Of a stretch of 64,000 nt of DNA, positions 6,546 through 64,000 are shown one piece after another (position 1 is the stretch's first letter; each line of letters begins with the position of its first letter). The stretch spans positions 107,880,001 through 107,944,000 of the forward strand of contig CM097885.1 of the NCBI GenBank assembly GCA_044892525.1, given 5' to 3'. The translations under genes were made by a program, and so were the position numbers. A model generated the notes under the pieces. It saw nothing but the letters and a program-made list of their open reading frames with translations, had not been told where the DNA came from and searched no databases. The DNA is from Schmidtea polychroa. Its lineage: Eukaryota.

Positions 6546-9500
6546 GATAATTGTGTAGCTGTTTTTAATAATTTATTTATTTCCATGGTTGTTTCATTAT
6601 ATTTTTATTAAAAGAAATAAAGATATATATATATTGGTTTCCAAGAAATTACTTAAATTGCTTCAATCTTTTTTTGTTTCCCTAATCTAACCATTATTGA
6701 AAGTTCTTGTGGAATATTATCTATGAGATTTTATAATGAAAGGAAAGTAAATGACTAAATAAAAAGATCAAAAAATTAAATGGTTGTAAACCGAGATGTC
6801 AAACCTTTGCAGATCCTTCAATAAAACATTATCTGAAGTAACACAAATGAAAAGTTGTGTTTTTAACGCTTGCATTGCTCATTTAAAAGTCTTGTTATTA
6901 AATTATATGTTTTACTGTATAATATTACTGTTAATTATTATTTTTACTGCAAAGATTTTAATTTATTTATTACCAACCGATAAGGTTTGAATCAACACTA
7001 AAATGACTATTGAATATATTAGTATTTTATAGTATATATTTTTATAGTATAAATATTTAATACAATAAAGCTTAAAGTAAGACTATGTAAATTGCAAATA
7101 ATTATTCGTTTTATTATAACATTTTATTTTTCTTTATATGAATTTTCGTCATTTTTTCTTACAAAATCGTTTTGAAATTTTATATAAATAATATTTGTAA
7201 CATTTTAATATGACAATTATTATTTCAAACACATGCAAAAATACATTTGTTTCCCATACTAATTTATATCTTTTGAATTTAAAGTAATTAATTTTTTAGG
7301 GAAATGTTTCAAAATTACCCAGTAATTCTGACTAATAAAGCAGTGAAATAATTAATATGAAAGTCAACTAGAAAAACAAAAATACAATTGTTATTATTGC
7401 TTCAGATGGATAAATCTCATATCTCAATAACATTTTAGTAGTTTTAGAAAAGAATATTAGTTAAATTTGAAAACAAAAGTTATAAAAAGATTTTGTGGAG
7501 ATTTTGTAATGAAAATAATTTTAAGCATCTTTAGATATTATTTATAATTTATAAGAGTTTTCTTCAATAACAAATTATTACCTCTATTTGTGATTTAAAC
7601 AATAAATAAAATTCCCGATTGAGTAAATTTTAGAAATTTTGTATTGATGGAAAAGATTATTTTATAAAATTGAAGAAAAATAAAAGTAAATTTCAATGAG
7701 ATTATGAAAATTTTAATTTTAACAAAGAAGCATAATAAAATGAATTTAGAATTCACAGAATGATTTGATGTAATCCATCTTTCGACTTCTTAATGTAAAT
7801 GTTATAATTATTTAAATAAAATTAGTTTATNNNNNNNNNNNNNNNNNNNNNNNNNNNNNNNNNNNNNNNNNNNNNNNNNNNNNNNNNNNNNNNNNNNNNN
7901 NNNNNNNNNNNNNNNNNNNNNNNNNNNNNNNNNNNNNNNNNNNNNNNNNNNNNNNNNNNNNNNNNNNNNNNNNNNNNNNNNNNNNNNNNNNNNNNNNNNN
8001 NNNNNNNNNNNNNNNNNNNNNNNTATTAAATGTAAATTTTTATAATGAACTGAAAAGAATATTTTGAATTGGTTGCTTCACATATTAGTTTTGATTGAAA
8101 ATGTTCAGAAAAAAAACAATTTTAAGCGGTAAAAATGAAGAGAAAATCAATTTTTTGCACTGATAATTAAATTTTAGTCTGATTTTATTTAGAAATTGTT
8201 TATTTATATTAATAGAAATAAAATATTTATTATTTTCTTTTGATATTTTTATAACTGAATAATTTGATATTTCTAATTTGATTATTTGATAATTATGAGA
8301 ATAGATATTTTTTATTATTAAAAATTGATATTCATACCTGTTTGAAATTTGATACATTTTAGTATTTTTATGGTAATAATAATAATAATAAATTCAAATG
8401 CTTTTTTGTTTTTTTTTATTACTAGACCCAAGAATCTGAGCACTTCATATAATAAAATGTTTATAAAATACATTTAATATCTTACAAACGAAGCATATGA
8501 GAAATTCATATCATCCTTGTGTCATCAAATAGGTTTGAACACAATTAAAGTTTTTAGTGGCATCCCATTGTGATAAGAAGTTGAAACTGCTATATGCAAA
8601 TACAGTTTGAGTTACAATTGATGTCATATTTTAGATATGTAAGGTTTGCCAGCTAGATTGCATGGATGTAAATTAAAGTATGTTTTTAAAATCAGCTTTG
8701 ACTTTATGTTTTTGACTGCCTGTTACTAATGTGTATAGGGACATTTTTGTGCTTATAACAGATATAATTTCGAAATGGTTATTTTTATTTATGATCAACA
8801 ACAAGAAGGATTTTTCAGTTTTATTTTTCTTAAAATTTACAATTTAATAATAATAATATACAAAAAATCTTTCTAATCTTTATACATAATTCAAATATTT
8901 TAAATTTTATAATAAAAATTCATTTTAATTTTAATTTACAATTTACAATTTTATGAGTTATTGTGTCAGTATTTGGGATAATATTAATGTTTTCATTTCG
9001 CTTTTTATCAATAAATTCATTAATTGTTTAATAAATTTTGACCATAAACGACTCGTTTGGATTCAAATTCCAATGTCTGTTTTCATTTCTAAAATAAGAA
9101 GCCAAATAAAATATTTGAATGTTTTGAAATTTCTTGTGGAAAAGAAAGTGAAAATTTTTAACACTGTTTTTTTTATTTAATTAGGTAGGGTAGATAGAAT
9201 TTCCTGAACAGACAGGCAGATACTATTTTACAGTCAAGCAGTTTCGACAATGTTTATTTAGACAGAGACCTTTTTTTTAAGTTTAAAGAATTCTGCTATT
9301 TATTCTCTTACAACATTTTTTAAGATAATAATTTGCATGATACCTAAATTTTAAAATTTAATGGAAACTTATAAAAACAAATAATGATATTTATTAATTA
9401 ATTTTAAATTAATTTTAAAAGTTGAAATAGTAAATTTTTATTTGCCATTTTCCATTGAAGCCAGTTTTCTGGATCAAATTAAGAATTTCTTTTTTTAAGT

Positions 9501-12500
9501 TAGTATAAATCTTTCTGAAAATGGTCGACTGTCAATGAAGAGTAAGAATTCTTTTGTGGGTATTGAAAGAGGATAAGAACATTACCATTGTAATAGATAT
9601 TTATTGGTTTTATTGTTAATTAATAAGTAATTTAATTTAATTTAAGCTAAGTAATCTAAATGCAAATTTTGAATAAGTTGTTTTTTATAATTAATATTTT
9701 TTCAATTATTTGTTTTAAACTTTAACAGTTTTAGCGTTATATTTGCATTTGAAATGAGCACCAGAACTGGAAAGTTGAGAAGTTTTGATTTTACCAATTA
9801 ACATAGTTTCATATAAAACTCACAAAAGAATTTCGTTAGATGGTAGTAAAATGTAAATTATGGCATAACAAAAATATTTTTGATGAAAGCAAAACATAAA
9901 AAACATCGTTTCTCAAATGGAAACAAGATTCAAGGGGAAAAGAATGATTCATGGCAGCCCTTGGGCAATTAAAATCTAAATTTCGAAATGTAATACTTGA
10001 ACTAATTTGAAATATTTCTACGACATTCTGCTAGTTTTATAATGAAATCGGTTTTTATATTATTATAACAAAAAAATGATTTTTAAAATAATTTTTTTTC
10101 TTTAATTGAAAAGTTAAAATAAATAGATATAAAGTTTATGGAACTTTAAGGAACTTTTAGGAAAGTAACAAAAATAAATTTTCAACAGCAACCTCTATTT
10201 AATGGTTAGTTTTTATTTTTAGCTAAACTAATCTAAATTGCTATTGTTGATCCGGAATAGTAAGAAACAATTAATTTTTTAATTACTAATTTAATTAAAG
10301 TATCTTGATACATTGGGCGTTAATGTGTCGAAAAATGAATGCGTTTAAAATTTTGTGATTTTTACTGCAAAATTTTAACTTTAAAAATTTTAATTTAAAA
10401 AAATGGTTCTTAAATAATTAATTAAATTTAATACAATTAATTAATTTAAGGAAATTAATGTTGAAAGCTTTGAAATTAAAAATACTTCAAAATTTAAATG
10501 TTGTGAATTTTCCTGATAAACTATTTCTTTTTCTGGCAAGAATTAACTACAAATTAAAAATAATAATAACTTTAATAATGGCTATAACTCGAATTTTAAA
10601 GCGAGAAACTCGCTATTATTATTTTGACATGGTAATGAAATTAAAAAGCACTCTGGAAGTAATGTAATTTGGAATTACTAAATCAAAATGTTAATGAGGA
10701 AACACAATTAAAAATATTATATAAAAATATTATATAAATATTATATAATCTCAGATAAATGGTAATATTTTTATTCTTCAGTCTGATGACTCGTTTTCAG
10801 TAGTTTTTATTACTACTTCCATAGTCTTAGTGTTTTTCAGTGTATGTTTAAAAATTTGACAAATAAACAAACAATTCCTGATGATTAAAATGGCTCGAAA
10901 ATAGTCTTTTAACCAACATAACATATCATATTTATTAAAAATTGTACATTTATATCATGTAGAAGTCAGCCTCATTTTGTTCGAAAAGTCGTTCATTTTA
11001 AATAATTACTTTAAAAAAATTTAATTTTTTAATTTTTATTTTTTTATTAAATCATATTAAATTAAATAAAATATCAATAAAATCAATCGCTTTCTCTTAA
11101 AAATTGTTAATTTAACAAAATTAATTTTTCCTATCTCTGTCTTTATATCTCTGTCTTAAATATCTTTAGTATTAAAAAATGGCCATTTTACCTAAAGTTA
11201 TTTTTTTCTTTAATTTCTTAATTGTGCAATTTAAACTTATTGAAAATATTAATAATAATATTAATAATAAAATTTTCTAAAAATATAAATAAAAATAATT
11301 TTATTTAGAAATATTTTTAAAATGCTTTTTGTGAACGAAAATTGTAAAAATACTGAAACATTTTTGGTAAAATGGAAATAGGTAGCTTTATTATTAGGAA
11401 TCAAAAAGCGCATAAGACCTTTGTATATGAGAAAACAAATTGATTTAAAAAATTCAAATATTTTTAAAATAATAGATAGTGAGAAAAATAATTAAGAATA
11501 TAAATTTATTGTCAAAAAAATTGATTGAGTAAAATAAAAATAAAAATTGATCAATGATGAAAAATATAAAAGATTTATTATTAAGAATAAAAAGTTATCC
11601 AATCAGAATTAAGGGAATTTTAATTCATTATTGCAATGATCAGATAAACTTATTAATCCCATAAATTTTATTTTAGAAATGACAAGATTTATTTATTTAA
11701 TATTAAAATAATTATCCAAATGCTTGGTTTATTAAAATGAATTTTTTGCAACATGTATGTATAAATGTATCAAATTATAACACAACTCTCTCACGCATCA
11801 AATACAATCCTCTATTCAGGGAGATTTAATAATAAGATTCGTTAATTTTTGATTTATTTCTCATGATTTCAAACAAAACTCTTTTCTATTCTATAAAGCA
11901 TCAATTTTCTTATACGAAGAATGAATTTCACTGAATTTGAAACAAAATTTATAATAATCATATACTCTATGGGTCCTAGAGAGTTCATGGATATGGTTTG
12001 TTTCAATTGAAATTTATTAATGTTTAATAAATATATTAATCGAAAATTTTAAATTAGTAAAAAATTTATCTTTTTTACCATTCGTCGATTTTTGTTTGAA
12101 TTGTTTTTAATATTTATAAATATTTATATATTACTTCTTTAATGTTTATTATATTTTTATTTTTAAATAAATATTAATTGAAAATATATTATTTAAATGA
12201 ATATTTGTTAGTGTTTAAAATTAGAAACTATAATAAAGCTATTTAAATTAAATATAATTTTAATACTTTTAATTGAATATATTTTTGTTTTAATTCTGAA
12301 CTGTGAAATGCAGTTCATTTTAGAAAGAAAATTCATATGCAAACAATAATTTTAAATATCAGTGGATTTTTTTCCGATAAGCCATTTTACTTGAAAAGCA
12401 TAATTAAATAATTCTTAATTTGTATATTTTAATTTCATTTTAAATAATCTTAGGTAACACATTTTTATATCTATTATAAATTACTCAAAAAAATGTTCTA

Positions 12501-17105: not shown

Positions 17106-20100
17106 GTCTGAGTGTGTGCAAGGCCTCAGACGTTTCTAAAACTTAGGCGCTTTGTAGAACCATTTTTAGAACCCTCGGTTGTAATGAAATGTCTAAATCT
17201 TATTTGTACTTATCATGATTTTTAAGATAATTTCAAAAGAAACGAACATGATTTGAAAAGGCGTAGAGAATACAATCCAACAAGAACTTGGATCTTCAAT
17301 AAACATTTAACTAACACAAAACAGGTATTTGTGCTCATGATTTTCAGTTAATTCCGGATTTAGGGGTTTTATATAAATGAAATACAGTAACGACAAAATC
17401 TTACGTGAAAGATTTAGTTTCCAATTAAAAGGGTGTTTAGCCAACGATGGAAGGATTACAAAAGCAGTGAAACTAATTATTACGTTTTTTTAATAACTCA
17501 GATCTTGAGAAGTCACATTTTGGTAAATACAAGTGGACAAAATCTGTGATTGGGCATATGAATACTTCCATGTTGCAAACATATTATATTTGTTAATAAA
17601 TAAATGTTTTATATTTTAATTGGAAATACTTTTAGGCTATTTAATATTCGTAGGTTCAATACATTGTGCTAGGGTACCTTATGGATGCAACAACAATGCA
17701 TATGAGTAATGTTTCTCTGTATTTCGGGAATCCCTGCCATTCTATTCTTACACAACTATATGTCCATGTATAACACACTTAATTTATTACAGCCAAATAA
17801 GGACACTGTTACAATCTTTTATCGTTTGTGCCTTTGATCATTTTTCATTTTAATTGTTGTTTATCTTCATTCCAAACTATAGATCAAAATTTTTATTTTT
17901 TAACTGTAATTTTTGGCACACACTTTTTTCATAAATATTTGAAAAACCTGTATTAAAAGTTCATGTTAAATAAATAAAAATATTGATTTATAACCTCGAA
18001 ATAAAACAAAGGACACTTTTATAATTATATTATATTTAAATCCTTTTATAACAGTTTTTAATGAAAATATTTATTTTAGAATTTATTAGTCCTTCTTATA
18101 TGCCATTTATTAGTGGAAAAGTATCATTTTTGACAGATTTTATGTCAAATCTCTTCCACGCAAATTTCAATCAAAATTTCAACAGTTTATTTCAAATATT
18201 CATAATTTTTGGTAAATTATTTATAATAAATATATATAAATTAAAAATATTAAATAATAAAAATTATTATGATAATAATTTAGAAGAGATAACTATTGTC
18301 GAACTAAGTAAAATTAATAAAGACAATAAAAATCTAAAAATACAAACTTTTGTTAAGATAAAATTAAATTTTCTGTATTATATGTTCATTAATATTCTCC
18401 CAATTTTTTAACATTAATTGGTACCCCCAAAAGTTGAAGAATTATTTTATTTTTTATGAAATTCTTAAATGGGAATTTTTAAATTCAAATTATTTTTAAG
18501 AAAATAACTCAAAAAATTAATTTAGTGAAAAATAATAATTTAACCTAAATATCAAGCGTATTTTTTGAATTGCAAGTATTCGACAATTTTAGAGAATAAA
18601 CGAAAACGAATCGAAATTCAGTTGTCCAAAAGAAATTTTGTTTTAATACATGTCAATAAGCTAATTATTGCATAATACAAAATATATCAGTGAGTCACTA
18701 TTCTGCTAGAAAGGAAATCATTTAATTTGATTATAAGACAAAATAAACAACAACACGACGAAAATAAACATCGAATATTGTATATATACCTGACATATTG
18801 TCCTTTGAAATTGTTTTCGTAGCTCGATTCGCTGTATGCTGAATCAGGGACATTGTCTCTATTTTCCAGTAACTTTTGGTTACATTCTGGTGAATCTGTG
18901 TGACAAAAGAAAATTAAGATTTAGATATGATCTTTTATCGAATATTATTTCCAACAAATACACATATTATATATTGTACAGAATTTATTTCAAATTATGC
19001 TTCATATTTTTATTTTTTAAATATTTATTTCTTTAATATTTAATGTAGTAAGCTTTGAATCAAAAAGCAAAAATTATTCCTAAATATTCTCAGAGGAAAA
19101 TCCCACAGCAATGTTATATTGAAAATGATAAATAAATAATTATAATACAAATAAATTTGTATTATTCAGATATTGCCGACAAAAATAATTATATATTATT
19201 TTCTGAAACTGTAATTTTATTTTTTCTAATGTTTACTATTATTATTATAAATTGAAATAATGTAACTAATTAAACAATAAATAATTTTAAAAATTAATTT
19301 AAAAATTATTAAAAAAATTAAAATGTAACCAAAAAAAGTAGTTAATAAAACAAAGAAATAAATTAATCAATATTTGATTTTAGTGAATGTTTATAATTAA
19401 AATCATTCATAACAGCTGTCGAATTCATTTCATAAATTTTGTTTAAAATTCAATGTAATTTTCAGAATTTGTTTTAATATTCAAAACTTTTTTTTCCAAA
19501 CTGATTTGCATAATGAAAATAATATTTTATTTAGTTGATAAAAATGTCATAAATAACAAAATTATATTAAAATGCATTCCGTGAATATATATAGATTTTG
19601 ATTATTTTTAACGTGTTCAAATTGCAACGGACTTCTTGTGATGCATGACAATAAGGGTCTCAAAAAATTATTTTATTTTACTTTTCATTTAAAGAAAAAA
19701 CAATTCATTATTTTTTCATTATTTGTTTTATTTCTAATTATATCACGTAAATTTACAAAGATTATATTTTCAACTTTTATGTGAGTGGCTTTACCCTGTT
19801 CTATGACATAATGTATTAACATTTCATTTTCATTACTGAAACCTTTATTAAATATTATATAAATCAGTTTGGCCAAACTTTATAAAATTGATAATATCTT
19901 GATAATATCTCTCTGCAAATTAATTATTTACTTTCGATAATTTAACATCTAAAAAATGTCATAAATGACATTCTAAATGACAACAAGTTGCAACCATTTT
20001 CTTTTCCAATTCCTGCTATCTTGATATTTTTTCATATTATAAATGTATATTTGAAAAAATAATGTGCTTAAAATTCGTGTTAAATCAAAAAAATATACAA

Positions 20101-23369: not shown

Positions 23370-23790
23370 CAGGGCCGTAACAAGGGTGGTGCGAGCGGTG
23401 CAGTCGCACAGAGCGCACATCTAAAAGGGGCGCAAAATTGGAATGAAACATTTTTTTAATGTTACCGAAAAATAACAAAATATAAATAAAAGAAATTATC
23501 AAATGGCCTACAAAACGACGCCCTAGCTAGCCTGTCTTTAACATTTTTGATTAGACTTGTCCATTAGCGTGCCTTCGTAGGTGTGTATTTTGTAAAATGT
23601 TAGTCCACAAAATGGGTTCCTGTCATTTTTTCAATTACCAATAGAATTTTAAGAGCATTACTACCTATTATAATAGCTGGAGATGAATAAATAGTTTACA
23701 ATCTTAACATGAATATTATAATTATTATAGTAGGCTGTTTTAAATTCGGGTTTTAGGGGCGCCAGATATATGAACCGTGCGGGGCGCAAT
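23370..23790 (+). mobile_element. hAT-like element inserted next to an ATT microsatellite; right end lost in an assembly gap
   Basis: Left end CAGGGCCGTAAC... with GC-rich GGGGCGC subterminal motifs, which recur at 23755-23790 just before the N gap. Confidence 0.55.
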
Positions 23791-26342
23791 ANNNNNNNNN
23801 NNNNNNNNNNNNNNNNNNNNNNNNNNNNNNNNNNNNNNNNNNNNNNNNNNNNNNNNNNNNNNNNNNNNNNNNNNNNNNNNNNNNNNNNNNNNNNNNNNNN
23901 NNNNNNNNNNNNNNNNNNNNNNNNNNNNNNNNNNNNGTATTATATAAATAAAAATGTAAATTATTATTATGTATGTAATAAATTTAAAGCGCAGTAATTG
24001 AAATCATTAAAGACATAATGTAAATATTTCTAAATTAAATATCATGATTAATACTGAAACATTAATTGATATATGTAAAAAATAATAATTTATTTAATTC
24101 CACAAAAATAAAAACTGTTGAACAATTTTATCTACGAAATCACCTCATTCATAAAAGTCAGTCACTGTAAAGAAAGTAAGGGAAAGTTGCATTGTTTTTC
24201 ACTTGGGTAATCAACTTTCTACAAGTGCCAATTTTAAATTAAATTGTATGGTAATTTGTACAATTTAAGTTAGCATCGGTTTCTTCAGGAATTATGCATT
24301 TAATCTAAAATATTTAAATTGTTAATTTATTTTTTATTTATAATTTTGAAACTGCTTTTCGTTATTATTATAATTATGCAATAGAGATTGAATTTTAAAT
24401 TAGTTTAGGAAATTTTATCCATTTTAGTATTAAATGGCAATGAACCAATTATATTCTTACGGATAATGCCTAATTTTCGAGTTTACACTCGATTAAGATT
24501 TTCCACAGAACTTTTTGACTTATTGCCAGTTAACAATAAAACATTTTGTAGTAATCGACTATTTTAAAAATTGTATAAATTAGAATTATATAAAAATTAA
24601 AGTTACTGAAATTTGTATATGTGAATGTAAAGTAATTTTGTTTAAATGTCACATTTTTTAATAATTCAAAATTTGAACCACATCTTTATTTCATTCTTAG
24701 TTTTTATTTAATATTGGTCATATATATGTAAAGTTTTCCTTATTCTATTCACCCAGATGTTTATCAAGTTTACCAACATTTTGAGTTGCAATGTTTCAGT
24801 CTTGATGCCTATTTTATTGACGACCTGCATACCAATCCTCGATATTCATAAACTCTTGATTCATGAAACTGAAAATAACATGATCTTTATTCTGTTCAAT
24901 GTATCAGTGAAGACATTCAATATGCAACGCAAGAACTAAGCAAGATTAAATACCTAAAACAGTGGTTTGATCACCATTTAGTCAATGAAAAGCATCAACT
25001 CAAGAAAGGCATTAATGAAATCACTAACCATATAATTTACAATCATTGGTGAGAGTATAAAATAAAGATATTCCTGAAAGTATAGCTTTTATATTGTAAA
25101 TAAAGTTGACAAAACCGAGAAAACTATTTATTGAAAATATCATTTATACAAAGGTAAAACTGATTTGTTAAGATTTGTTAATTATAACAAAAATGTTAGC
25201 AATATATAATGGTATGGTTTCGAATTCAATTTCTCTGTCACAATTAATTAATATAAATTTAAAGGTTGCTTTATAAAATAAACATTAATTATAACAAAAT
25301 TTACACTATTTTTTTAATTAACAAATTTACAAGATACCTTTTACTTTAAACATGTGGTTTCTTCATTTTGATTTTTATGTGGTTTATGACATATTTATAG
25401 ATGAAACTTTTTGATTGAAAATAATTTAAGATATTTTTAAATTATATTAATTTCATTTTTGATTGCGTATTTCAATAGTTATTAATTAGATATAAAATAA
25501 GGAAATACATCCTCTTTATTAAGAGTTGATAGAATTTGATATATTAAATACAATTATCAGAGATTTTTAAAATTTAGTGATATTGTTTAAATTTATTAAC
25601 ATTTCCCAAAGAAATCAGGTTTTTAAATAACAAAAAAAACAGTATATTTCGAATACCTAATTAATATAACAGATAAATTACTTATTCAAATAAATTTCCC
25701 AAAACTTACATGGAGAAGATTTGACTTTAATGAGGACAACAATAGATATATATAATAATCCCAATTGATACATCGCAAGCATAATTAGGTATAAATCACA
25801 GATGAATTATTTCCATTGATAATAATGATAGTTTTATCAAAAATAATTATAAATAAGAAATTATAGAAATTTAATTTATGAATATATATCATTTTTCTCA
25901 TAGGTGGATTTTTAGTACTCCAGTATGATTGGCTGCCGATTCTTTCTTTTACCAATCTTTAAATAAATGTAATTTTTCTCAAAAAAAATAACGAAATTAT
26001 TACATTGATAAAATATCTTAATAAATTTTTTTAAAAATTCCTATTAATATGGTTAAGTTATTTATCAAATAATCAAAAACTTTGCTTCAGATTTAAAAAA
26101 ATTAATTACTGTAACATAAACTGATTCATGTAATTAAAATATTTAAAATTATATTCTTAATAAGAATGTAATTTTTTTAATATTAGGTCATTTTTTCAGT
26201 ATTATAAGCGCAAATAAATTTTTTTATGAAATTTTCAATAGTTTATACTTATTTATACATTGTTTAAATAATTAGTTTTATTTACAAGGGCATTATTATA
26301 CAAATCAAATATTTATATTTAATTAATATTAAATTCCTTAAA

Positions 26343-27359
26343 ATGGTTTTATTACTTAATGGCAAAGTTGTAGAATTTAATCCTGATGAGTTAAGAGCTC
26401 TGTTGCGTGATCATCCATGCTCATTGGAGGCATATAAATTCCAAAATAAACCAGTTCAGGTCGTTGAAAATAATAAAAATTTATTATTTCTGCATCAAAG
26501 AGAAATGGGAATAATTACACAACAAGATCCAGCAGTTTGTTTCATTGGTACAGATGATGCGACAACTTGCCATTTCATAATATTAGATTGCATTAATGCC
26601 GGTTTGATTGGTGGAGCTCATCTTGATGGTTGTGGAACTGATTTATTCTTTGATACTTTCATATATCATGTGCGAAAAGCTTGTGAAAAATATAATTATT
26701 TAAGAAAATTGTCTACTTCTAAGAATCATTTAGCTGACAAAGAAACTACTGATATAACGGTGCAAAGTCAATTTGAAATTTCAGTTTTTGTTGTTGGTGG
26801 ATTTATCGATGATGATGGAACTTCAGAAAAGCTATCTAAAGATATTCTGTTGATTATGTCAGACAAATATTCAGATATAAATTTTCGATTAGAATTGTTT
26901 TGTGTAACAGATTTGAATAATCGGGTTAAAAGTGGTTATAATTATCCTATATTTTACGGTGGACTTTATAATACAAGAATTCATAAAATTTACCCTGCTT
27001 GCTTTGCAAAAAATGCCAAAGAACCTCAGCATATTTTACGTTCAACGAGATTTTGTTGCTCACCGACTATTTACAATGTTTATAATCCAGATGAATGCTT
27101 CCTACAACTAAACGATTTTGATTACAAAGGCTATGAAAATAGAGGTTATTATTTACAATTATCACAAGCTCCTGATAGTCGACTCCGAAAGTTTTCAACA
27201 TCTCCTAAACAAGAGAGAGAAGGGTATGAGGCTTCATTGAGGAATGTTTTCAGATTTATGTATGACAACCCTGAACCAAAACTTTCAATGTATGACGGTG
27301 ATTATGGAATGCGATATAAATGTGATAATAAAACAGGAGATTGGTTAATATATAAATGA
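26343..27359 (+). CDS. NTAN1: Protein N-terminal asparagine amidohydrolase (Nt-amidase of the Arg/N-degron pathway), 338 aa, intronless
   Basis: QREMG, GTDDATTCH (catalytic Cys region), HLDG, VGGFIDD, CVTDLN, YPIFYG and STSP motifs are collinear with metazoan NTAN1 over the full length. Confidence 0.95.
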   Translation: MVLLLNGKVVEFNPDELRALLRDHPCSLEAYKFQNKPVQVVENNKNLLFLHQREMGIITQQDPAVCFIGTDDATTCHFIILDCINAGLIGGAHLDGCGTDLFFDTFIYHVRKACEKYNYLRKLSTSKNHLADKETTDITVQSQFEISVFVVGGFIDDDGTSEKLSKDILLIMSDKYSDINFRLELFCVTDLNNRVKSGYNYPIFYGGLYNTRIHKIYPACFAKNAKEPQHILRSTRFCCSPTIYNVYNPDECFLQLNDFDYKGYENRGYYLQLSQAPDSRLRKFSTSPKQEREGYEASLRNVFRFMYDNPEPKLSMYDGDYGMRYKCDNKTGDWLIYK

Positions 27360-43103: not shown

Positions 43104-45052
43104 CATTTTGGAAAACTATGATGATCTCACCAAAGTAAACCATCAAAAGTCATGTAAGCTGACTAGAAGTCCAGAAATTGTAAAGTATATAATTATAAAA
43201 TTATAAAATTATATAAAAAAATTATATAAATTATATAAAATAATATAAAGTTATATAAAATTATATAATTATAAATCCTAAAGTATAAAAACCTAAAATC
43301 GTGAATTATTGTAAACTTCAAAATATATAATTATAAATTAGAAGACCTAAATCCCTAAATGGTAAAACATAAAATTATACTACCATTATTATTATTATTA
43401 ACACTATTATTATTATTATTGTCACTAAGGTTATCATCATTATTACTATTATTATTAGTATTGCTGTTANNNNNNNNNNNNNNNNNNNNNNNNNNNNNNN
43501 NNNNNNNNNNNNNNNNNNNNNNNNNNNNNNNNNNNNNNNNNNNNNNNNNNNNNNNNNNNNNNNNNNNNNNNNNNNNNNNNNNNNNNNNNNNNNNNNNNNN
43601 NNNNNNNNNNNNNNNNNNNNNNNNNNNNNNNNNNNNNNNNNNNAATTATTAATCTTATTTCATAAAAATAAAATTATAAAACAAATTATTGATTTTGGGA
43701 TTCCCCTATCTCTAAATTTAGTTTTAATGGCCCTATCTTCCAATAAAATTACAGAAAATCAAAAAAAAATCTATTTTTAGTAACACCGCCCCTGCAAACG
43801 ACATCAATATTATTAATTTAAATTATATCCATATATGTATGCAGGTGTGGGTGTATATGTATATATATGTGAATGTGTGTATGTATATCCAGATTTATAA
43901 AACAACCTTACAATAATACGATAACCTCCAAGACCCATGTTATATAATGGCCACAACCCCTTTAAGGTAATAGCATGAAGAAAAATAATTTACTAAAGCA
44001 ATTTATTAAAATAATTTATTAAAATTATTAGATTTATTTTCAACTCAAATCAAAAAGAGACTAAATTTATTAATTTCAATCACTAAATTTCTGACAAAAT
44101 TAGGTTCAAATCAAATCAAAAGACGAGACTCAATTGTAAACTAAGTTTATTAATTTCAATCACCAAATTTATTTACATCATGGTTTCTTTGAATCATATT
44201 CATGCCAAAGTCCTTCGAGTACAGTTGATGGACCAGCCCAATGAAATACATCTCCTGGGGTTGGAAAGCTTTTGGGTGATTCCTTACTTTCCCCTTCAGG
44301 TCTTTTCTTTTCTTGGTTCAATGACTTGCATATTGCTTTGATGTAATAATGTTAGATGGTCAACTATATTCCTTGCATCTCTTTTGAGTGGTCATTGTCA
44401 GGTAATTCCGCCAGGAAAATTAGTTGGTGGAACTGACCTTGGGGCAACCAAGTCTTCATACCTCATCGAATTGTTATAAACCCGACTACTAAGGAAATCT
44501 CTGAATTTTCTCGTTGATGTTGTCGGCGATCTTTGCTCATCAGGGGTGTCATGATACGTTGTTGGTCAAAGGTGATTGTTTCGGGAGTTCGGCCGACTAC
44601 TGATATTACTGAAATATTATTAAAAAGTTTATGATATAAATATTTAATATTTTAATTTATTTACATTATTATATCGAAATTAACTAAAAATTATATACTT
44701 ATTCGAAATTTACTATTTACCATTAATTGTAATTACAATAATAAAACAACGAAAATTTAAATAATGTTAAATGACTTTGACAAAACCAAAAGTGATAATG
44801 AAATCAAAATTCCATTACTCTATTTAAATTATTAGTTACCAACTTTTTCTATTGGATAAAATTCCTTCTAATTTAATTAATTAAAAATCATATCGGTAAA
44901 TTAAATCGAAAAATTCATGTTAAAAGTATTCATATTAATTTTAGTAAAATTAGTAGTTAAAGTATTATTTATTTTTCTTGGTATATTTTATCATAACGTC
45001 AATTTGTAAGCCACATTGGCGATGCGCGGGTCTTAATATTTATAATACAGGC

Positions 45053-45417
45053 ATGTCCCAATCAGACGATTACAGTGATGAAGAAACCCACCGGCAAATG
45101 ATGACCCGGATCCGTACGCGGTATATTTGGTACCGCATCCACGACTGGAATCGTGGATTGGACCTTGACAACTTTGGCCCGTTATCAGAAGTGGCCCGGA
45201 ACCGGATGCCCCGGCATGGGTGAAGACGGAGCCGGAGAACAACACACTCCGAGAGGCCCGGGATCAAGCAGCCAGTGATGTGGAAGCCGCTCAGATCCGG
45301 CTGAAGCAAATAGAATTGCAAATTTGAGCCAAGAGAGAGGGAGTATCCCTGGAAGAACTCGAGGAGGCCGAGACAACTCCACGAAAGAGAGGAAGGCCCC
45401 GCAAGCATGCCGTGTGA
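45053..45417 (+). pseudogene. Cargo ORF-A1 (paralogue of 50551-51033): coiled coil plus C-terminal AT-hook, disrupted
   Basis: The N-half WYRIHDW matches WYKIHDW. After a frameshift near 45170 it reads KTEPENNTLREARDQAASDVEAAQIRLKQIE (matches KVEPYLNHAS...DAIDRLHRLE), then a premature TGA at 45325, then TPRKRGRPRK. Confidence 0.7.
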
Positions 45418-45684
45418 TTATGGGATGACAATTTACTTGACTATTTTATTTGTATATGAACTAAATAATAGAAGTTGTCGGTGTTTAATTCATTTTCATT
45501 TGTACATTAGTTAAATATGAGTAGTCGTCGGGTGTTTATTCTCGAGTAAAATATCTTCCTTTTGTTCTGTAAATCACTTGATAGATGGAGGAGTTGTAGA
45601 GATGCCCTAGTAGAAAGCGTTACTATTAATTCATTAATTTTACTACTTATTTGTTTAAATTTTCCTTGAGCGTAATCGGTACTA

Positions 45685-46170
45685 ATGAAATTCCTTTTAG
45701 TGTACAAATTAATGGAGAATCTACGTAAAGATCGGGAGCAGGCCCAACAACAAGCCGACGAACTCCGAGTCCGAGGGAATAAGTTGAAAAGGAAATGTCG
45801 GGAGCTCGGGGGGACCTGGTTTAGTCCCGAGGCAATGAAAAAGAAAACAGCTCAGATTCTCCAACTGCAGACACAAGCAAATCAAGACCAAATGGAGATC
45901 CGCGCCCTGAAATTGCAGGTGCGGGCACTCGAAACCGAGCGTAATGAACAATTTATCCAGGAAGCCGTGGCACGACAAATACGGCCGCTGACCGTTGAAC
46001 TCGCAACAATATATCCTCCAGCCGCGGAAGGTAAACCCAAACGAAAGCGGCTTGGACGGAACATTCGGGAGAAGTTAAAAAAGGCCAGATTGGCCGAGTT
46101 CGAACGGCAAGCAAATTCATCGCAAGCGTCTACGACGGGGTTGGCCAGCTCTACCAACAAGCCGATTTGA
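45685..46170 (+). CDS. Cargo ORF-B1: coiled-coil protein with a basic C-terminal patch, unknown function
   Basis: GC-rich ORF homologous over its whole length to 51450-51914 (DREQAQ, CR..xTWF, QLQ, QDQ.E.RAL, IRPL). Homology starts right after a shared TTTAG/TG acceptor, so the true 5' end may be spliced. Confidence 0.75.
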   Translation: MKFLLVYKLMENLRKDREQAQQQADELRVRGNKLKRKCRELGGTWFSPEAMKKKTAQILQLQTQANQDQMEIRALKLQVRALETERNEQFIQEAVARQIRPLTVELATIYPPAAEGKPKRKRLGRNIREKLKKARLAEFERQANSSQASTTGLASSTNKPI

Positions 46171-49999: not shown

Positions 50000-50550
50000 A
50001 ATTTTGATTGAAAAGGAAATTTTTTTTTTAAAAAAGGAAATTATTATGGAATAATAAATTAACCTTTTAATTGAGATAAACAAACTCATTCGAATAGGTA
50101 ATTCTAATTTAATTTACGAAATTCAAATTTTTCAGTTAATTGATTCATATCAAATATTTATTTTAATTCAACTTATGCAATTTTATTCAAATATCAAATA
50201 TTTATTTTAATTTAATTTATGCAATTTCTTTCAAATATTTACTTTAATGCGAAATTGTCTACCTTAATTTTGCCCTACCCCCCTTAAGTTGATAACCTAA
50301 GTCACCAATCTGAAATGTAGGAACTTGATTTAATTTAGCAATCTGGAACCAATTTATTGAATTGGGTATATGGACCAAATATAGAAATAAATTTATAAAC
50401 TAATTTACGTTGCCTAGAAATCATGGTCTGTTGAATTGGTTGTGTGTCATGCGTGTACATAAATTGTAACGAGGTATTTGGATGTTTTGGAGTGATCAAA
50501 CGTAACAGAAGTGTAAGGATTTGTTCTAATATTTTGGTTATATTACAGTC

Positions 50551-51033
50551 ATGCCCAACACCAGGTCAAGGAATATGCAGGCCGGCCCCTCATCAGTCGA
50601 TTCGAGCCTAGAAATTACCGGCGAGGAAGCAGACGAAGCCGTCCGATTGAGAGAGGACGCAGAAATCGCCCGGCTACGGTCCAGGTGGGTCTGGTACAAG
50701 ATCCATGATTGGACTTACCAGAACGTGATCCCCGTAATTCCGAAGGTGGAGCCTTACCTCAACCACGCGTCGTTAGCCTTGATCGACGCTTTTGACGAAG
50801 TGACGGATGCGATAGACCGATTACACCGGCTCGAGAAAGCGACTCTGGCTGGCGAGGTAGAAGACTGCGACGGCTACGCTCGAGCCCAATGTCACCCGAA
50901 ACGGACCGCGGCTCTTCAGCGTGGATTAAAATACCCAAGACGGCCTCAACGAGGACCAGGACGACCAAGGACACGCGGACACACGCGAACGTCCACCCGC
51001 TCGACCAAGGAGAGCGCGGGATTTGGAGAGTAG
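50551..51033 (+). CDS. Cargo ORF-A2: 160 aa, acidic N-terminus, coiled coil, basic tail with a GRPR (AT-hook-like) motif
   Basis: Intact GC-rich ORF. Its ATG follows a TACAG acceptor plus 2 nt, exactly as in ORF-A1. Confidence 0.75.
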   Translation: MPNTRSRNMQAGPSSVDSSLEITGEEADEAVRLREDAEIARLRSRWVWYKIHDWTYQNVIPVIPKVEPYLNHASLALIDAFDEVTDAIDRLHRLEKATLAGEVEDCDGYARAQCHPKRTAALQRGLKYPRRPQRGPGRPRTRGHTRTSTRSTKESAGFGE

Positions 51034-51449
51034 GCGGAAAACTCGGGATCAAAACTAATCATTTTGTGCTGACCTCAGTGTCGGGTGTATTAGGTGATAT
51101 TATGTACTGGATTAAACCTCTTTAATCCAGGATTGAATAAAATATGTTAGGCCTTAACAGTTCATCATAATTATTTAATGTTTGTTTGTGTCTTGATGGT
51201 CGGTGACAACTTAATGGGGTGGATTGTTTGAATTTTTGCAATGTCCATGACGTGGAATATCGTCATTGTTGACTACACATTTCTATAGCGACAACAACCC
51301 TATAGGTTGAGTAAGATAAATAGGTCTCGGTCTTGGGGCGCGCGTAGCGAAGGACTACGACGAGGGGATTACTTTCTTTTAGCCTTAATGCCCATAATAA
51401 TGTTCGACCCTCGATGTCGATGTAAAATCATTGATCTTACCTTTGTTTA

Positions 51450-51914
51450 GTGCAGAAACTCTTGGAAGAGATGCGAGCTGATAGGGAACAGGCACAACGA
51501 CAGGTAGACGAATACCGGACCAAGTTGACCCGAGTCAAGACCCACTGTCGGAACTTCGAGTGCACCTGGTTCCCACCAGCGGAGATGAAGAAGAGGATGA
51601 AGTTGATCACCCAACTGCAACTTCAGAATGCTCAAGACCAGATTGAGTTGCGGGCCCTCCGCTTAAGGGTGAGGGAACTGGAAGCCAAGGTGCATCAACA
51701 GGAGCTGGAGCGAGAGGTCATTGCCAAGATCCGGCCTTTAGATGAGTTGCTCCATCGACCAAAAGAACCTGCCCCCACAATAGTAACCCCAAGGAAGAAG
51801 ATTCGGCCGGGAAAAGCGGCACGAGCGAGGATGAGGCAGGCCAGCCAGGCCCAATTAGCTCTCCATGCTACTGAATCAGAGGCTACGCCAAGAGAACCGA
51901 CCAGCACACGATAA
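51450..51914 (+). CDS. Cargo ORF-B2: coiled-coil protein with a basic C-terminal patch, unknown function
   Basis: Paralogue of 45685-46170 with amino acids conserved despite many synonymous differences; begins at a TTTAG/TG acceptor. Confidence 0.75.
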   Translation: MQKLLEEMRADREQAQRQVDEYRTKLTRVKTHCRNFECTWFPPAEMKKRMKLITQLQLQNAQDQIELRALRLRVRELEAKVHQQELEREVIAKIRPLDELLHRPKEPAPTIVTPRKKIRPGKAARARMRQASQAQLALHATESEATPREPTSTR

Positions 51915-56675: not shown

Positions 56676-56786
56676 AGTAGATGGATTGGGCACCGCTGGC
56701 ACAGGGCACCGCTAGCACAGTACCCCCCCTCCCCCCCCGTCGGTAAGATTTTCAAAAATATTCTAAGTCTAAAAGTACATTTTTTT

Positions 56787-57446
56787 TTCAAGGTCAAATT
56801 TAAACAAAGACATATGACTCATCAAGGTCATTGAAACAAAGACCATGAGTCATCCTATGACTCATAAAATTTTTCAAGGTCATTTAAACAAAGACCATGA
56901 CTCATCCGATGACTCATCAAGGGCATTTTCAAGGTCATATGACTCATAGTATGACTCAGATGACCTTGAAAATTTTTTTCAAGGTGATATGACTCATCCT
57001 ATAACTCATCAAGGTCATTTTCAAGGTCATATGACTCATAGTATGACTCATCTGACCTTGAAAAATTTTTTTTCAAGGTCATATGACTCATCCTATGACT
57101 CATCAAGGTCATTGAAACAAAGACCATGACTCATAGTGTGACTCACCAAGGTCATTTTCAAGGTCATATGACTCATCAAGGTCATTTTCAAGGTCATATG
57201 ACTCATAGTATGACTCATTTGACCTTGGAAATTTTTTTTTCAAGGTCATATGACTCATCCTATGACTCGTCAAGGTCATTCTCAAGGTCATATGACTCAT
57301 CCGATGACTCATCAAAATTTTCAAGGTCATTTTCAAGGTCATCTGAGTCATCCTATGACTCATCAAGGTCATTTTCAAGGTCACATGACTCATCCAAGGT
57401 CATTCCCAAGGTCATATGAGTCATCGCGATGACTCATCAAGGTCAT
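56787..57446. repeat. Polinton subterminal tandem/inverted repeat array built from TGA(C/G)TCA and (T/C)CAAGGTCA
   Basis: About 25 copies of each motif by manual count, some inverted to form hairpins (TGACCTTGAAAAA..TTTTCAAGGTCA). Confidence 0.9.
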
Positions 57447-57601: not shown

Positions 57602-57670
<69 letters not shown>

Positions 57671-58401: not shown

Positions 58402-58922
58402 ATGTCTCAATTTATGGAAAATCTTTTAAGAGAACTCGTCAACAGGAATATTATGGAAAGCCTATGTTTCCTGGTCGATCGGACCGAAAAGATTATAGAA
58501 GGTAATCACATTGATTATGACGATGTGATCAATTCTGATTGTCTCGAAACCAAAAAATTCTATTTTAATAGAATTTTTAACTGTCTATGCGACGATCAGA
58601 TGAAGTGGACCCGAATACTAGTAGGGTTCGCTTATATGAAAATAATAATCCAAAGAAGTCTATGGGACTCAGAGCACTATTATCAGTGGTCTCAAGAAGT
58701 AATACTTTTATAATTTATATTTTATTAATATTTATTTTCTAGATAATCAAGTCAAAGTTTCAACCATGGATTGAAGCCAATGGCGGATGGGGAGTACTCA
58801 ATCAACTCGCCAGAAATGCAAAAGAAATAGACGATCAGAAAAGAAAATTTAAAAACTATGTAAAACTTGCAACAGGTGTTGCTATTTTGTATATTTTAAC
58901 CAGATTTTTAAATAAAAATTAA
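58402..58922 (+). CDS. Bcl-2 family protein, 158 aa, two exons (58402-58698, 58743-58922; 44-nt intron)
   Basis: BH1-like LCDDQMKWTRILVGFAY. Splicing GTAATA...TTCTAG (phase 0) gives WSQEIIKSKFQPWIEANGGW, aligning without gaps to Bcl-xL WMATYLNDHLEPWIQENGGW. C-terminal tail anchor LATGVAILYILTRFLNKN. Confidence 0.88.
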
Positions 58923-60765: not shown

Positions 60766-61203
60766 TTAGAAATCGACCAATGAAATTATCTCATTTCGAA
60801 CATTGTCAACAAATTCTCTATACTCCAAATTTCTCAACCCCAACATGACAACCTTTCCACTAGCAAACACGTTGACACATATAGGGTTATATTTTAATAG
60901 TCTTAGTGCCGGAAACAATTCCGGTTCAAACATACAATCACATTTTTTCGACATGTTATATAGATTGATACTATGTCCCATATCCATAGTAACGGTAATT
61001 GATTGGATTTTAATATTATTTATTCGATATTGTAATTTATTAATATCCAAAGGTTTCTTACATCCCATGATTCTGCATTTACCAGTCTTGAAAAATATTA
61101 TCGGATATTTCCCACTTCTATCGATAATTTGCTGGGGTTTCCCTGGTGGGAACCTCATATTCGATACATCAAAATTTCCTCGATAATTTATATTTGCTAA
61201 CAT
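60766..61203 (-). CDS. Compact TATA-binding-protein-like protein, 145 aa
   Basis: Both TBP repeats are recognisable: LANINYRGNF...IIFFKTGKCRIMG and IQSITVTMD...FEPELFPALRL...VNVFASGKVVMLG. Confidence 0.85.
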   Translation of the reverse strand: MLANINYRGNFDVSNMRFPPGKPQQIIDRSGKYPIIFFKTGKCRIMGCKKPLDINKLQYRINNIKIQSITVTMDMGHSINLYNMSKKCDCMFEPELFPALRLLKYNPICVNVFASGKVVMLGLRNLEYREFVDNVRNEIISLVDF

Positions 61204-61302: not shown

Positions 61303-61929
61303 ATGGAATTAAGAAATGATGCTGTATACCAAATCGTTGGTCCGAGTGGTAGTGGAAAAACATTATTTGTTTGTAAATTACTAAAATCCAATTTATTCAA
61401 ATCAAAATTCAACAGGATTTATTGGCATAGGGGTGCTGATGAAGAACATGGATTAACTCAATCAAGTTTCTGTAAATTAAAAAACATGAAAATAGTAAAG
61501 GGATTCGATAAAAACTGGTCCAGCCGATTAAAGAAAGGCGATGTCATTATTATCGATGATTTGTATCAAGAAGCTAATAAAGAAAAAGATTTTAATAATT
61601 TATTTACAAAGATTAGCAGACATGTCGGTGTAACAGTTATTTTCATAACTCAAAATCTATTTCATCAAGGTGGGGCACATCGAACACGTAATTTAAATGT
61701 ACAATATTTAGTCATTTTCAAGAATCCTAGAGATGCAACAGTGATTGATTTTCTTGCACGTCAAGCATACCCTAACAATCGTAATTTTCTTATCAGTGCA
61801 TTTCAAGATGCTACAAAAATACCTCATGGATATATATTTCTTGATTTCACACAACAATGTCCCGATGATTTACGTGTAAAAACAGATATTTTCAACCCAA
61901 AAGGTGCCATGGTTTATAAACAAAGTTGA
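61303..61929 (+). CDS. Polinton packaging ATPase (A32/FtsK-HerA-like), 208 aa
   Basis: Walker A GPSGSGKT, Walker B VIIIDD, and SRH, ITQ and FKNPRD motifs typical of Polinton ATPases. Confidence 0.92.
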   Translation: MELRNDAVYQIVGPSGSGKTLFVCKLLKSNLFKSKFNRIYWHRGADEEHGLTQSSFCKLKNMKIVKGFDKNWSSRLKKGDVIIIDDLYQEANKEKDFNNLFTKISRHVGVTVIFITQNLFHQGGAHRTRNLNVQYLVIFKNPRDATVIDFLARQAYPNNRNFLISAFQDATKIPHGYIFLDFTQQCPDDLRVKTDIFNPKGAMVYKQS

Positions 61930-61947
61930 AAACCTCTATGAATAATA

Positions 61948-62481
61948 ATGTTTCTAAAAGCAAGGGTGAAAAATATTAGGAAATTAAGAAAAGGTATTAG
62001 AAAGACTATTAAAGTTCCAAAGGTTCCACCAACAACTAGTTATACACCATCTAAAAAACTTGTAACTGAAAATTTCTCTGCAATGAATCTTATTTCGAAA
62101 AATCCTAAACCTAAACGTAAAACCCGTAAAACCCGTAAAACCGGTAAAAAAGTAGTTAAAAATCATCGCAGTTTTCCATTTTTTAATGCATTGTTAAAGG
62201 CTCCGAGTATGAAAAGAATGAATATATTGCAATCATTCCCAAATTTTGTTGTCGATGATTTACTCAATATTATACTTAAAGTAGTCAAAGGCAAAATTAA
62301 AATCAGTAAATCAAAAAAGCATTTATTGAGCAAACATAGGAAACCTTTATTATCTTTAGTAAATAATAAAAATCGTAAGCAAATGAGGAAAATTATATAT
62401 AAACAACAAGGTGGATTTATTGGTGCCTTGATACCTCTGGCATTATCATTATTAGGTGGAGTTGTAGGAAATCAATCATAA
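61948..62481 (+). CDS. Basic putative virion core protein with an adenovirus pX-like C-terminus, 177 aa
   Basis: Very Lys/Arg-rich; ends QQGG-FIGALIPLALSLLGG, resembling adenovirus pX MRGG-ILPLLIPLIAAAIG (protease site plus hydrophobic peptide). Confidence 0.7.
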   Translation: MFLKARVKNIRKLRKGIRKTIKVPKVPPTTSYTPSKKLVTENFSAMNLISKNPKPKRKTRKTRKTGKKVVKNHRSFPFFNALLKAPSMKRMNILQSFPNFVVDDLLNIILKVVKGKIKISKSKKHLLSKHRKPLLSLVNNKNRKQMRKIIYKQQGGFIGALIPLALSLLGGVVGNQS

Positions 62482-62484
62482 ACA

Positions 62485-62712
62485 ATGGGTGCTAATCCTT
62501 CATTGCCCGACATTAAATTTAATTTTAAATCTTCTTGTTGTAATGGAGAAGATTTGGACGAACCCAGAAGACGAAGCCGGTTTCGGTGGAGTGGCAAAAT
62601 TAAACAAAAGAGTTCCGAATTCGAAAAAAGAAACCCAGAAGTGGTTATCAGATCAGCTTGCGTACAGTTTGAACAAACCAATGCGGAAAAGATTTCCAAC
62701 AAGAGCGTATAA
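62485..62712 (+). CDS. Candidate small ORF with an N-myristoylation signal, overlapping the integrase start in another frame, 75 aa
   Basis: ACAATGG start context; MGANPS (MGxxxS), a CC pair and a basic cluster; fills the gap between the core-protein stop and the integrase ATG. Confidence 0.45.
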   Translation: MGANPSLPDIKFNFKSSCCNGEDLDEPRRRSRFRWSGKIKQKSSEFEKRNPEVVIRSACVQFEQTNAEKISNKSV

Positions 62713-62930
62713 AACATTTGGTATTGACGATTTATGGCAAATGGATTTGATGGAGATGATACCATATTCGAAAATTAACAATGGGAATAAATATATTTTA
62801 ACATGTATTAATGTATACAGCAGGTTTGCACGAGCAATACCAGTCAAGGCAAAATCTGCAGAAGAAATGTCCAAGGCAATTAATATTTTATTTAAAGATG
62901 GACATCCTAATAATTTGCAAACAGATTTAG

Positions 62931-63001
<71 letters not shown>

Positions 63002-63631
63002 TTAGGTAAAGAATTCTACAATAGCAAAGTTAAGCAAATCCTCGATAAACTGAAAATAAATCACTACTCGGTACATTCTCAATACAAAGCTGCCCATGTT
63101 GAAAGATTTAATCGAACATTGAGAGATAGATTAAAGAAATTGTTCGTGCATCAAGGTAATAAAAAATGGGTAAATGCTTTACCGAAAATAATAACAAGTT
63201 ATAATCATTCATCACATCGAGGACTGAATGGATTGAGACCGGTTGATATTACATCAAAAACACCATTATCTAAAAAATCTGTAAAAATTGCAAAACCTAA
63301 ATATAAAGTCGGTGACCATGTTAGAATTAGTAAAATTAGTGCATCACCATTTATTAAAAATTTTGATACAAATTGGAGTGATGAAGTCTTTGTAATTTCA
63401 AAAATAAATACTAAACAGAATCCTGTAATGTATGTCATCAAAGACAATGATAATAATATTGTACAGGGGAAATTTTATGAGCAGAAATTACAAGTCATTC
63501 CTCCCCCAAAAGTATTTAGAATTCAAAAAATATTGAAAACTAAAAAGGTCGGTAAGGATAAACAATACTATATCAAATGGCACGGTTATCAAAACCCGTC
63601 ATGGATATCGTCAAAAGACCTAGTAAAATGA
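62543..63631 (+). CDS. Polinton retroviral-type DDE integrase with a C-terminal chromodomain; 337 aa after removing the 75-nt intron 62931-63005
   Basis: WQMD, QTDLG/KEF and VERFNRTL catalytic motifs; chromo-like FRIQKIL...YYIKWHGY...SW. Likely start ATG is 62543 (MEKIW). Confidence 0.92.
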
Positions 63632-64000
63632 ATTTTTATATTATTTTACCTAGCAATAGCTGTCCACTTATTCATCCAGATAATAAAGCCAGCAAATTCA
63701 GGGTCAATCTTCAAAATCCGATATATTTGGATAATAGCTGGGAAGTTGCTCTGTTGGATTTTACATTTGTATACCAAGCCTTTCCATTTTATAGTAAGGC
63801 TAAAATTGGATACAAAAAGAATGAGTGGCCGGATAGATTATTGTCTATGATCATTGATAATGCAGATGATGAAGTTCGGTTGTCTAACTCAACTGATCCA
63901 GCTGTGAAAATGTATATTAACCATTCATATATAGTAGTTGAATGTAAACATTATCCTTTTACTGTAAAATTTGATAGTTTGGAAATGGCAAAACGATTGG
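63628..64000 (+). CDS. Polinton minor capsid protein (penton), N-terminal part; runs off the window
   Basis: ATGA overlap with the integrase stop; MNFYIILPSNS...HPDN..SKFRVNL..PIYL..SWEVAL is the typical Polinton penton N-terminus; frame open to the window end. Confidence 0.85.
   Translation, partial: MNFYIILPSNSCPLIHPDNKASKFRVNLQNPIYLDNSWEVALLDFTFVYQAFPFYSKAKIGYKKNEWPDRLLSMIIDNADDEVRLSNSTDPAVKMYINHSYIVVECKHYPFTVKFDSLEMAKRL

Follow-up and report, generated by a model that had tools for sequence, protein, structure and literature searches.

A pure ATT microsatellite as a putative spliceosomal intron at the catalytic motif of a Polinton-type integrase in Schmidtea polychroa

Can a stretch of DNA that consists of little more than one repeated trinucleotide serve as a spliceosomal intron, and can such an intron sit within the active-site motif of a mobile element's integrase? 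The question is raised by a 64-kb stretch of Schmidtea polychroa DNA (hereafter the window, meaning the whole stretch that was analysed), near the end of which a gene for a Polinton-type, retroviral-like (rve) integrase with a C-terminal chromodomain, at 62543..63631 (features lie on the forward strand unless stated otherwise), is interrupted at 62931..63005 by GT, 23 ATT units and TTAG. The interruption is a putative phase-1 spliceosomal intron, splicing being predicted from the sequence, and our answer to the question is a qualified yes: we put at slightly better than even (about 0.55) the chance that it is a lineage-level U2 intron at an AG/GT proto-splice site, the body of which has been filled by a common microsatellite.

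The interruption is 75 nt long and in frame, and positions 62932-63001 form a perfectly periodic run of 70 nt with a purity of 100%. The frame 62543-63631 stays open across the insert, translating it as 23 consecutive Ile, and neither a frameshift nor a stop is found within the 362 codons of this copy; any change in the number of ATT units preserves the frame. The putative intron splits a Gly codon two codons past the second catalytic Asp, and its two junctions lie in an 8-bp direct repeat, TTTAGGTA, of which the left copy (62926..62933) holds the putative donor G/GTATTA, a weak match to the consensus, and the right copy (63001..63008) the putative acceptor TTTTAG/G. A preliminary description of this DNA had reported a pure, stop-free, in-frame ATT insert of 75 nt with GT...AG borders, an identical sequence at both junctions, and a position beside the second catalytic Asp, and all of this holds: the repeat begins at 62926 and again at 63001, and removal of 25 codons gives the spacing of the homologs. 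Such a repeat-flanked pattern occurs once in the window as against 0.01 times expected from 100 shuffles, for a pattern that was picked after it had been seen.

The enzyme is recognized by Pfam matches, by 1193 homologs and by invariant columns. Both Pfam matches (rve, E 1.3e-5; Chromo, E 0.0015) fall below the curated cut-offs, and the catalytic residues are 68, 128 and 187, numbered from the Met at 62543. All of the 120 best among the 1193 homologs conserve the second catalytic Asp and the Glu, and the spacing between these two is 33 residues in 119, 34 in one and 58 in the window copy, which is exactly 25 codons longer at the motif than those 119. The comparison with related Polintons that the preliminary description had called for thus finds the insert absent from 120 of 120 homologs, although breaks at the same codon do occur elsewhere, as discussed below. 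The motif is also uninterrupted in the DNA of 31 of 35 metagenome loci (in the remaining four the match stops at the contig end before the motif), and a natural relative, P0002, aligns across it with solved retroviral integrases.

The gene lies in an element with a putative left end, AGTAG, at 56676 and a right end beyond the window. Upstream of the integrase are a packaging ATPase of the A32-like type (61303..61929; Pox_A32, E 3.6e-7, above the cut-off), placed as in the gene order of related loci, and a basic protein (61948..62481) without a Pfam match that is conserved in the interval between ATPase and integrase in related loci and that we take to be core-protein-like. Downstream, tblastn against related loci identifies the start of a further gene (63628..64000), again with no Pfam match and presumably penton-like. 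A short TBP-like gene on the reverse strand (60766..61203; TBP, E 1.6e-15) is present too in the related loci L004, L009 and L023, and a Bcl-2-like gene (58402-58922) is encoded in two pieces. Degenerate tandem repeats follow the putative left end (56676-57425) and are rich in TGACTCA and AGGTCA words, which, we assume, resemble AP-1 and nuclear-receptor half-sites. L023 encodes an adenain-type protease (Peptidase_C5, E 1.1e-7), and the two capsid-like ORFs of L009 have no Pfam match. No protein-primed family B polymerase was found among the ORFs of the window, which ends within the element; in L009, a 1089-aa ORF (9125-12391) has an endonuclease VII (HNH-type) match, partial polymerase-like motifs and no PDB match, and may be compared with the HNH-bearing pPolB2 group described in PMC10748475.

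With its chromodomain rve integrase, A32-type ATPase and cassette order, and with the adenain-type protease of its relatives, the element resembles the animal Polintons or Mavericks (eupolintoviruses, "adintoviruses"). The layout fits and both an integrase and a packaging ATPase are present, so that an assignment to the Polinton/Maverick (adintovirus-type) elements is probable. We keep it at that strength because intronless core genes, a descriptive rather than a defining trait, are not what is seen here: intact vertebrate Mavericks are reported to have intronless core ORFs (PMC8097293), whereas the window integrase is interrupted at its catalytic motif. The family is of very high copy number, a 1-kb section of it being matched by 10,135 contigs in run X1 and by 1,571 in X5, and IMG/VR scans with P0002 and with the window integrase and ATPase returned no relatives. 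Elsewhere in the window, a single-exon host gene at 26268-27359 encodes a protein N-terminal asparagine amidohydrolase (Pfam E 2.7e-51), and two similar ORF pairs (44957-46170 and 50530-51914), each a WY.IHDW-motif ORF followed by a coiled-coil-like ORF, lie near repeats of 77-92% identity at 41.3-42.0, 46.3-47.0 and, inverted, 33.3-33.6 kb. The ORFs tested from these pairs had no Pfam match, and pairs and repeats together make up an unclassified repeated element.

What would the spliceosome find at the integrase? The GT...AG borders are collinear with the uninterrupted homologs, as expected of a U2 intron. An internal comparator is offered by the Bcl-2-like gene, whose pieces are separated by 44 nt (58699-58742) with GT-AG borders and 91% A+T, a putative host-type intron; the flanking pieces match Pfam Bcl-2 at 12-66 (E 0.01) and 86-100 (E 0.34), matches that are weak but collinear. 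The donor of the 75-nt stretch, GTATTA, is weaker than that of the comparator, and a YTRAY branch motif, of which the comparator has one, is missing from its last 40 nt. This absence lowers the case for an intron without excluding it, because the consensus may not be that of the host.

ATT tracts of this type are common in the window, in which four further pure arrays of 54-83 nt are present. Under a loose test, two of the five long pure arrays, that of the integrase included, have GT to the left and AG to the right, and borders of this kind are by themselves weak evidence because one other array also has them. The junction repeat, by comparison, is found at none of the other four. One of these, a pure (ATT)23 array at 57602..57670 without a flanking direct repeat, probably belongs to the left part of the integrase-bearing element, as judged from the putative left end about 0.9 kb away; it is nearly equal in length to the integrase tract and could be a template for it or a parallel case. 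The idea that the other arrays are retroposon tails framed by distant duplications was rejected, the search around them in the window having yielded nothing convincing, only low-complexity matches of 10-11 nt. Two ATT arrays each adjoin another feature, one (17106-17131) a short hairpin (GTCTGAG...CTCAGAC) and the other (23370-23410) a GC-rich start, CAGGGCCG, which to our mind resembles a DNA-transposon end.

The interruption at this site is apparently not private to the window copy. The sole near-identical proteins found in public assemblies, P0125 and P0149, both diverge at the same Gly. P0149 continues for 17 residues past it before unrelated sequence and a stop; this tail is Ile-rich, and its first 8 codons are at most 2 changes away from ATT repeats. 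The possibility that it is frameshifted downstream coding sequence was discarded, with 11 of 30 mismatches, much as in controls. P0125 jumps from the Gly to 63587 with GGT flanking both sides of the jump, which looks like a microhomology deletion; as a canonical splice product it was rejected on the window sequence, in which no AG precedes the landing point at 63587. Three proteins of a related clade, P0130, P0200 and P0133, end 1-4 residues past the same Gly, and the first residues that they show beyond it, K and N, would fit GTAA donors. The tail is shared by P0130 and P0200 despite 10 differences over 159 residues. When the N-terminal halves are placed in a tree (34 rows), these three form one starred clade (96/95) and the window integrase with P0125 and P0149 another (100/100); the two meet in an unresolved fork, and a constraint joining them is not rejected (p-AU 0.36), which allows one origin for both clades rather than demonstrating it.

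Chance breaks near the motif also occur, as is evident from isolated examples: P0134 and P0138 end near it while their sisters are intact, and in locus L038 (262-1009) an unrelated sequence that opens with TG splits the integrase immediately behind the catalytic Asp codon, about one base at most from where the window has its duplicated 8-mer. Among 162 truncated proteins, 25 end 0-4 residues past the Asp, whereas no other 5-residue bin holds more than 9. This excess is not counted as support because 11 of the 25 are gene models of one spider Polinton family, of which seven could be identified by name: the Trichonephila models P0225, P0226, P0234, P0239, P0252, P0259 and P0295, all of which stop at the same integrase motif. 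Several Trichonephila models run on into capsid-like, ATPase or protease sequence, and their breaks may reflect faulty gene prediction or genuine alternative splicing that uses a latent donor; we read them as no more than a hint that the surrounding codons could provide such a donor.

A search for a near-identical protein without the interruption came up empty, both in 2340 candidates of 199-634 aa (best 69%) and in 155 shorter ones, although the neighbouring ATPase occurs unchanged on 6 contigs. Because high-copy repeats assemble poorly, we treat the lack of an empty allele as suggestive. Contigs of X1, X5, X12 and X14 were compared over the right flank, 63001-64000, where a left overhang of 9 letters, compatible with either an empty or a filled site, is common to two X14 contigs (1 difference over 172 nt in one, 11 in the other). 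At 63267-63268 the window copy is 3 nt shorter than the X12 and X14 contigs that cover the place.

If the element is interrupted in its active site, has its integrase remained functional? Downstream of the site, 20 of 27 differences within the family are synonymous, compared with 33% expected for transitions (p 2e-5), the 27 being single changes within the ORF among 40 of 77 differences after 3 adjacent changes and 10 beyond the stop were dropped. The family's integrase has therefore been under purifying selection, with the proviso that the synonymous bias may stem from subfamilies that lack the interruption. Of 110 conserved columns, the window copy itself deviates in 5 (residues 90, 92, 315, 335 and 344), compared with 0-7 and a median of 3 in homologs, and the deviations at residues 90 and 92 recur in P0125 and P0149. 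At position 63485, 99.8% of X1 depth carries another letter than the window copy. Whatever happens in the lineage, this copy may be decaying.

These signs can be taken further. The ATT tract, not usefully spliced, may have disrupted the active-site loop in a single ancestral copy and left it with a dead integrase; the resulting sub-lineage would then have multiplied with the help of integrase from intact families while decaying further, as in the P0125 deletion and the P0149 rearrangement. A dead insertion of this kind would account for the weak donor and absent branch motif, for the substitutions in otherwise invariant columns, two of them in common among the three near-identical proteins, and for the near-private letters of the window copy; GT/AG borders occur in two of five ATT arrays anyway, and 96% of vertebrate Maverick loci are reported to be degraded, some by large insertions (PMC8097293). 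Against it stand the inheritance of a break at this codon by a related clade and a 362-codon frame free of frameshifts and stops, and exact GT-AG collinearity would have a prior of only about 2% under a random 8-bp duplication. On balance we consider a dead insertion unlikely, although it carries real weight.

The figure of about 2% is the chance, given 4 sites in the integrase gene, that a random 8-bp duplication there would contain AGGT, and it speaks for a splice site that was already present or was selected. How, then, did the tract arrive? The 8-bp repeat is no proof of a duplication because the D-L-G-K codons give one copy and the splice consensus supplies much of the other. Of the two origins offered by the preliminary description, a fresh duplication of the proto-splice site is accordingly not proven by the repeat, and an older intron overwritten by slippage, which fits the related clade, appears slightly better. 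Parallel gain at the site is possible; parallel intron gains at one site are described as common in Daphnia (PMC4202315). According to PMC3443670, flanking repeats of at least 5 bp are found even at 26% of conserved Drosophila introns, a further reason why the repeat proves no duplication; for gained Daphnia introns, the share flanked by direct repeats is given as 43%.

The Daphnia precedents could also be read as pointing to a recent event, in which one or a few copies received either the (TAA)n tail of a retroposon or filler from break repair, together with a target duplication, and the 8-bp duplication with its AGGT made both splice sites at once while most family members remained uninterrupted. 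The perfection of the repeat, the complete purity of the tract, the Daphnia direct repeats (PMC3443670) and parallel gains (PMC4202315), and the spider gene models that break at the same motif, consistent with a latent donor, would all suit a neo-intron. The near-identical empty allele that it predicts was not found, however, both near-identical proteins also break at the site, and neither junction repeats nor convincing distant duplications accompany the four other long arrays, so we regard a neo-intron as improbable.

Perhaps the tract, or at least its length and purity, was instead shaped during assembly, by gap filling or by the merging of high-copy repeats. The window contains 9 runs of N, its five long arrays are alike in length (54-83 nt), and the copy number is extreme (the 10,135 X1 contigs on 1 kb). 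Against this, the Ile-rich, near-ATT continuation also appears in P0149, which comes from a separate public assembly, and such an artefact could change the unit count while hardly creating the site; it seems to us a very improbable source of the interruption.

The preliminary description had gone on to propose that retention would yield an in-frame but probably inactive integrase, such that splicing efficiency or repeat length could gate mobility; as a switch, repeat length would tune splicing and through it mobility. The frame is indeed kept at any number of units, and a retained stretch would be extremely hydrophobic (19-residue Kyte-Doolittle mean of 4.5 versus 0.94 in P0002). In an AlphaFold model of the unspliced protein (mean pLDDT 87), a strand ends at the catalytic Asp and the insert forms a low-confidence loop and helix directly behind it, which makes loss of activity upon retention plausible. 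That loss is inferred, because the fold model keeps a confident core. Moreover, in-frame retention is not a trait of the group: apart from the window copy, the two clades contain five interrupted proteins, and four of these (P0149, P0130, P0200 and P0133) reach a stop after 1-17 residues of sequence foreign to the integrase, so that retention in frame looks incidental to the window copy. For new Drosophila introns, PMC2809761 reports that stop-free, in-frame cases are under-represented, which also counts against the intron reading itself. We give the regulatory switch almost no credence, and the more elaborate combination, in which a pure array without a branch point is spliced from an active-site codon, the site is filled repeatedly in relatives, and repeat number sets the amount of active integrase, is a long shot.

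The reading that we favour, a U2 intron common to the lineage, asks for less. In a high-copy Polinton lineage, the Gly codon that closely follows the second catalytic Asp would be split by a short, host-type GT-AG intron occupying a natural AG/GT proto-splice site. The host spliceosome would remove it, and therefore the integrase of the lineage can be normal. The intron body, being unconstrained and A/T-rich like the host DNA, would have been turned into pure (ATT)23 by slippage in the window copy, and other copies would have a different body or a deletion starting at the same point. The breaks in the other proteins would then be introns as well, the window stretch would be spliced, and the repeat would have overwritten an older body. 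Nothing in this picture calls for a regulatory role. The intron proposed in the preliminary description thus gains from the collinearity, the breaks at the same codon, the second GT-AG interruption in the element and the mostly synonymous variation, while splicing itself stays a prediction.

Parallels to known systems are partial. Eupolintoviral proviruses of dinoflagellates with introners (PMC12166617) likewise have host-type introns inside Polinton-like elements. Introners, however, are transposon families with many similar copies, whereas the body here is a simple repeat with no second repeat-flanked copy in the window. Also similar are the gained introns of Daphnia and Drosophila (PMC4202315, PMC2809761, PMC3443670), as described there: a short A/T-rich insertion, a repeat over both splice sites, a weak donor and possible parallel gain at one site. 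Those cases lie in host genes, while this one lies in the enzyme of a mobile element, with a pure trinucleotide body and a near-identical empty allele that was not found. Within the portions consulted, PMC10748475 and PMC6431247 make no mention of spliceosomal introns in Polinton genes, and a literature search, whose scope was mainly outside subscription journals and Repbase, returned no account of an intron at this integrase motif, nor of an element of this type with an intron made up entirely of microsatellite.

If the tract is unspliced, it is an ordinary microsatellite lesion. If it is spliced, a core enzyme of a Polinton depends on the host spliceosome, and GT, a bare run of ATT and TTAG suffice as an intron. 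Surveys based on ORFs would then count such integrases as dead, and the high-copy population would allow intron gain and repeat turnover at a single site to be tracked copy by copy.
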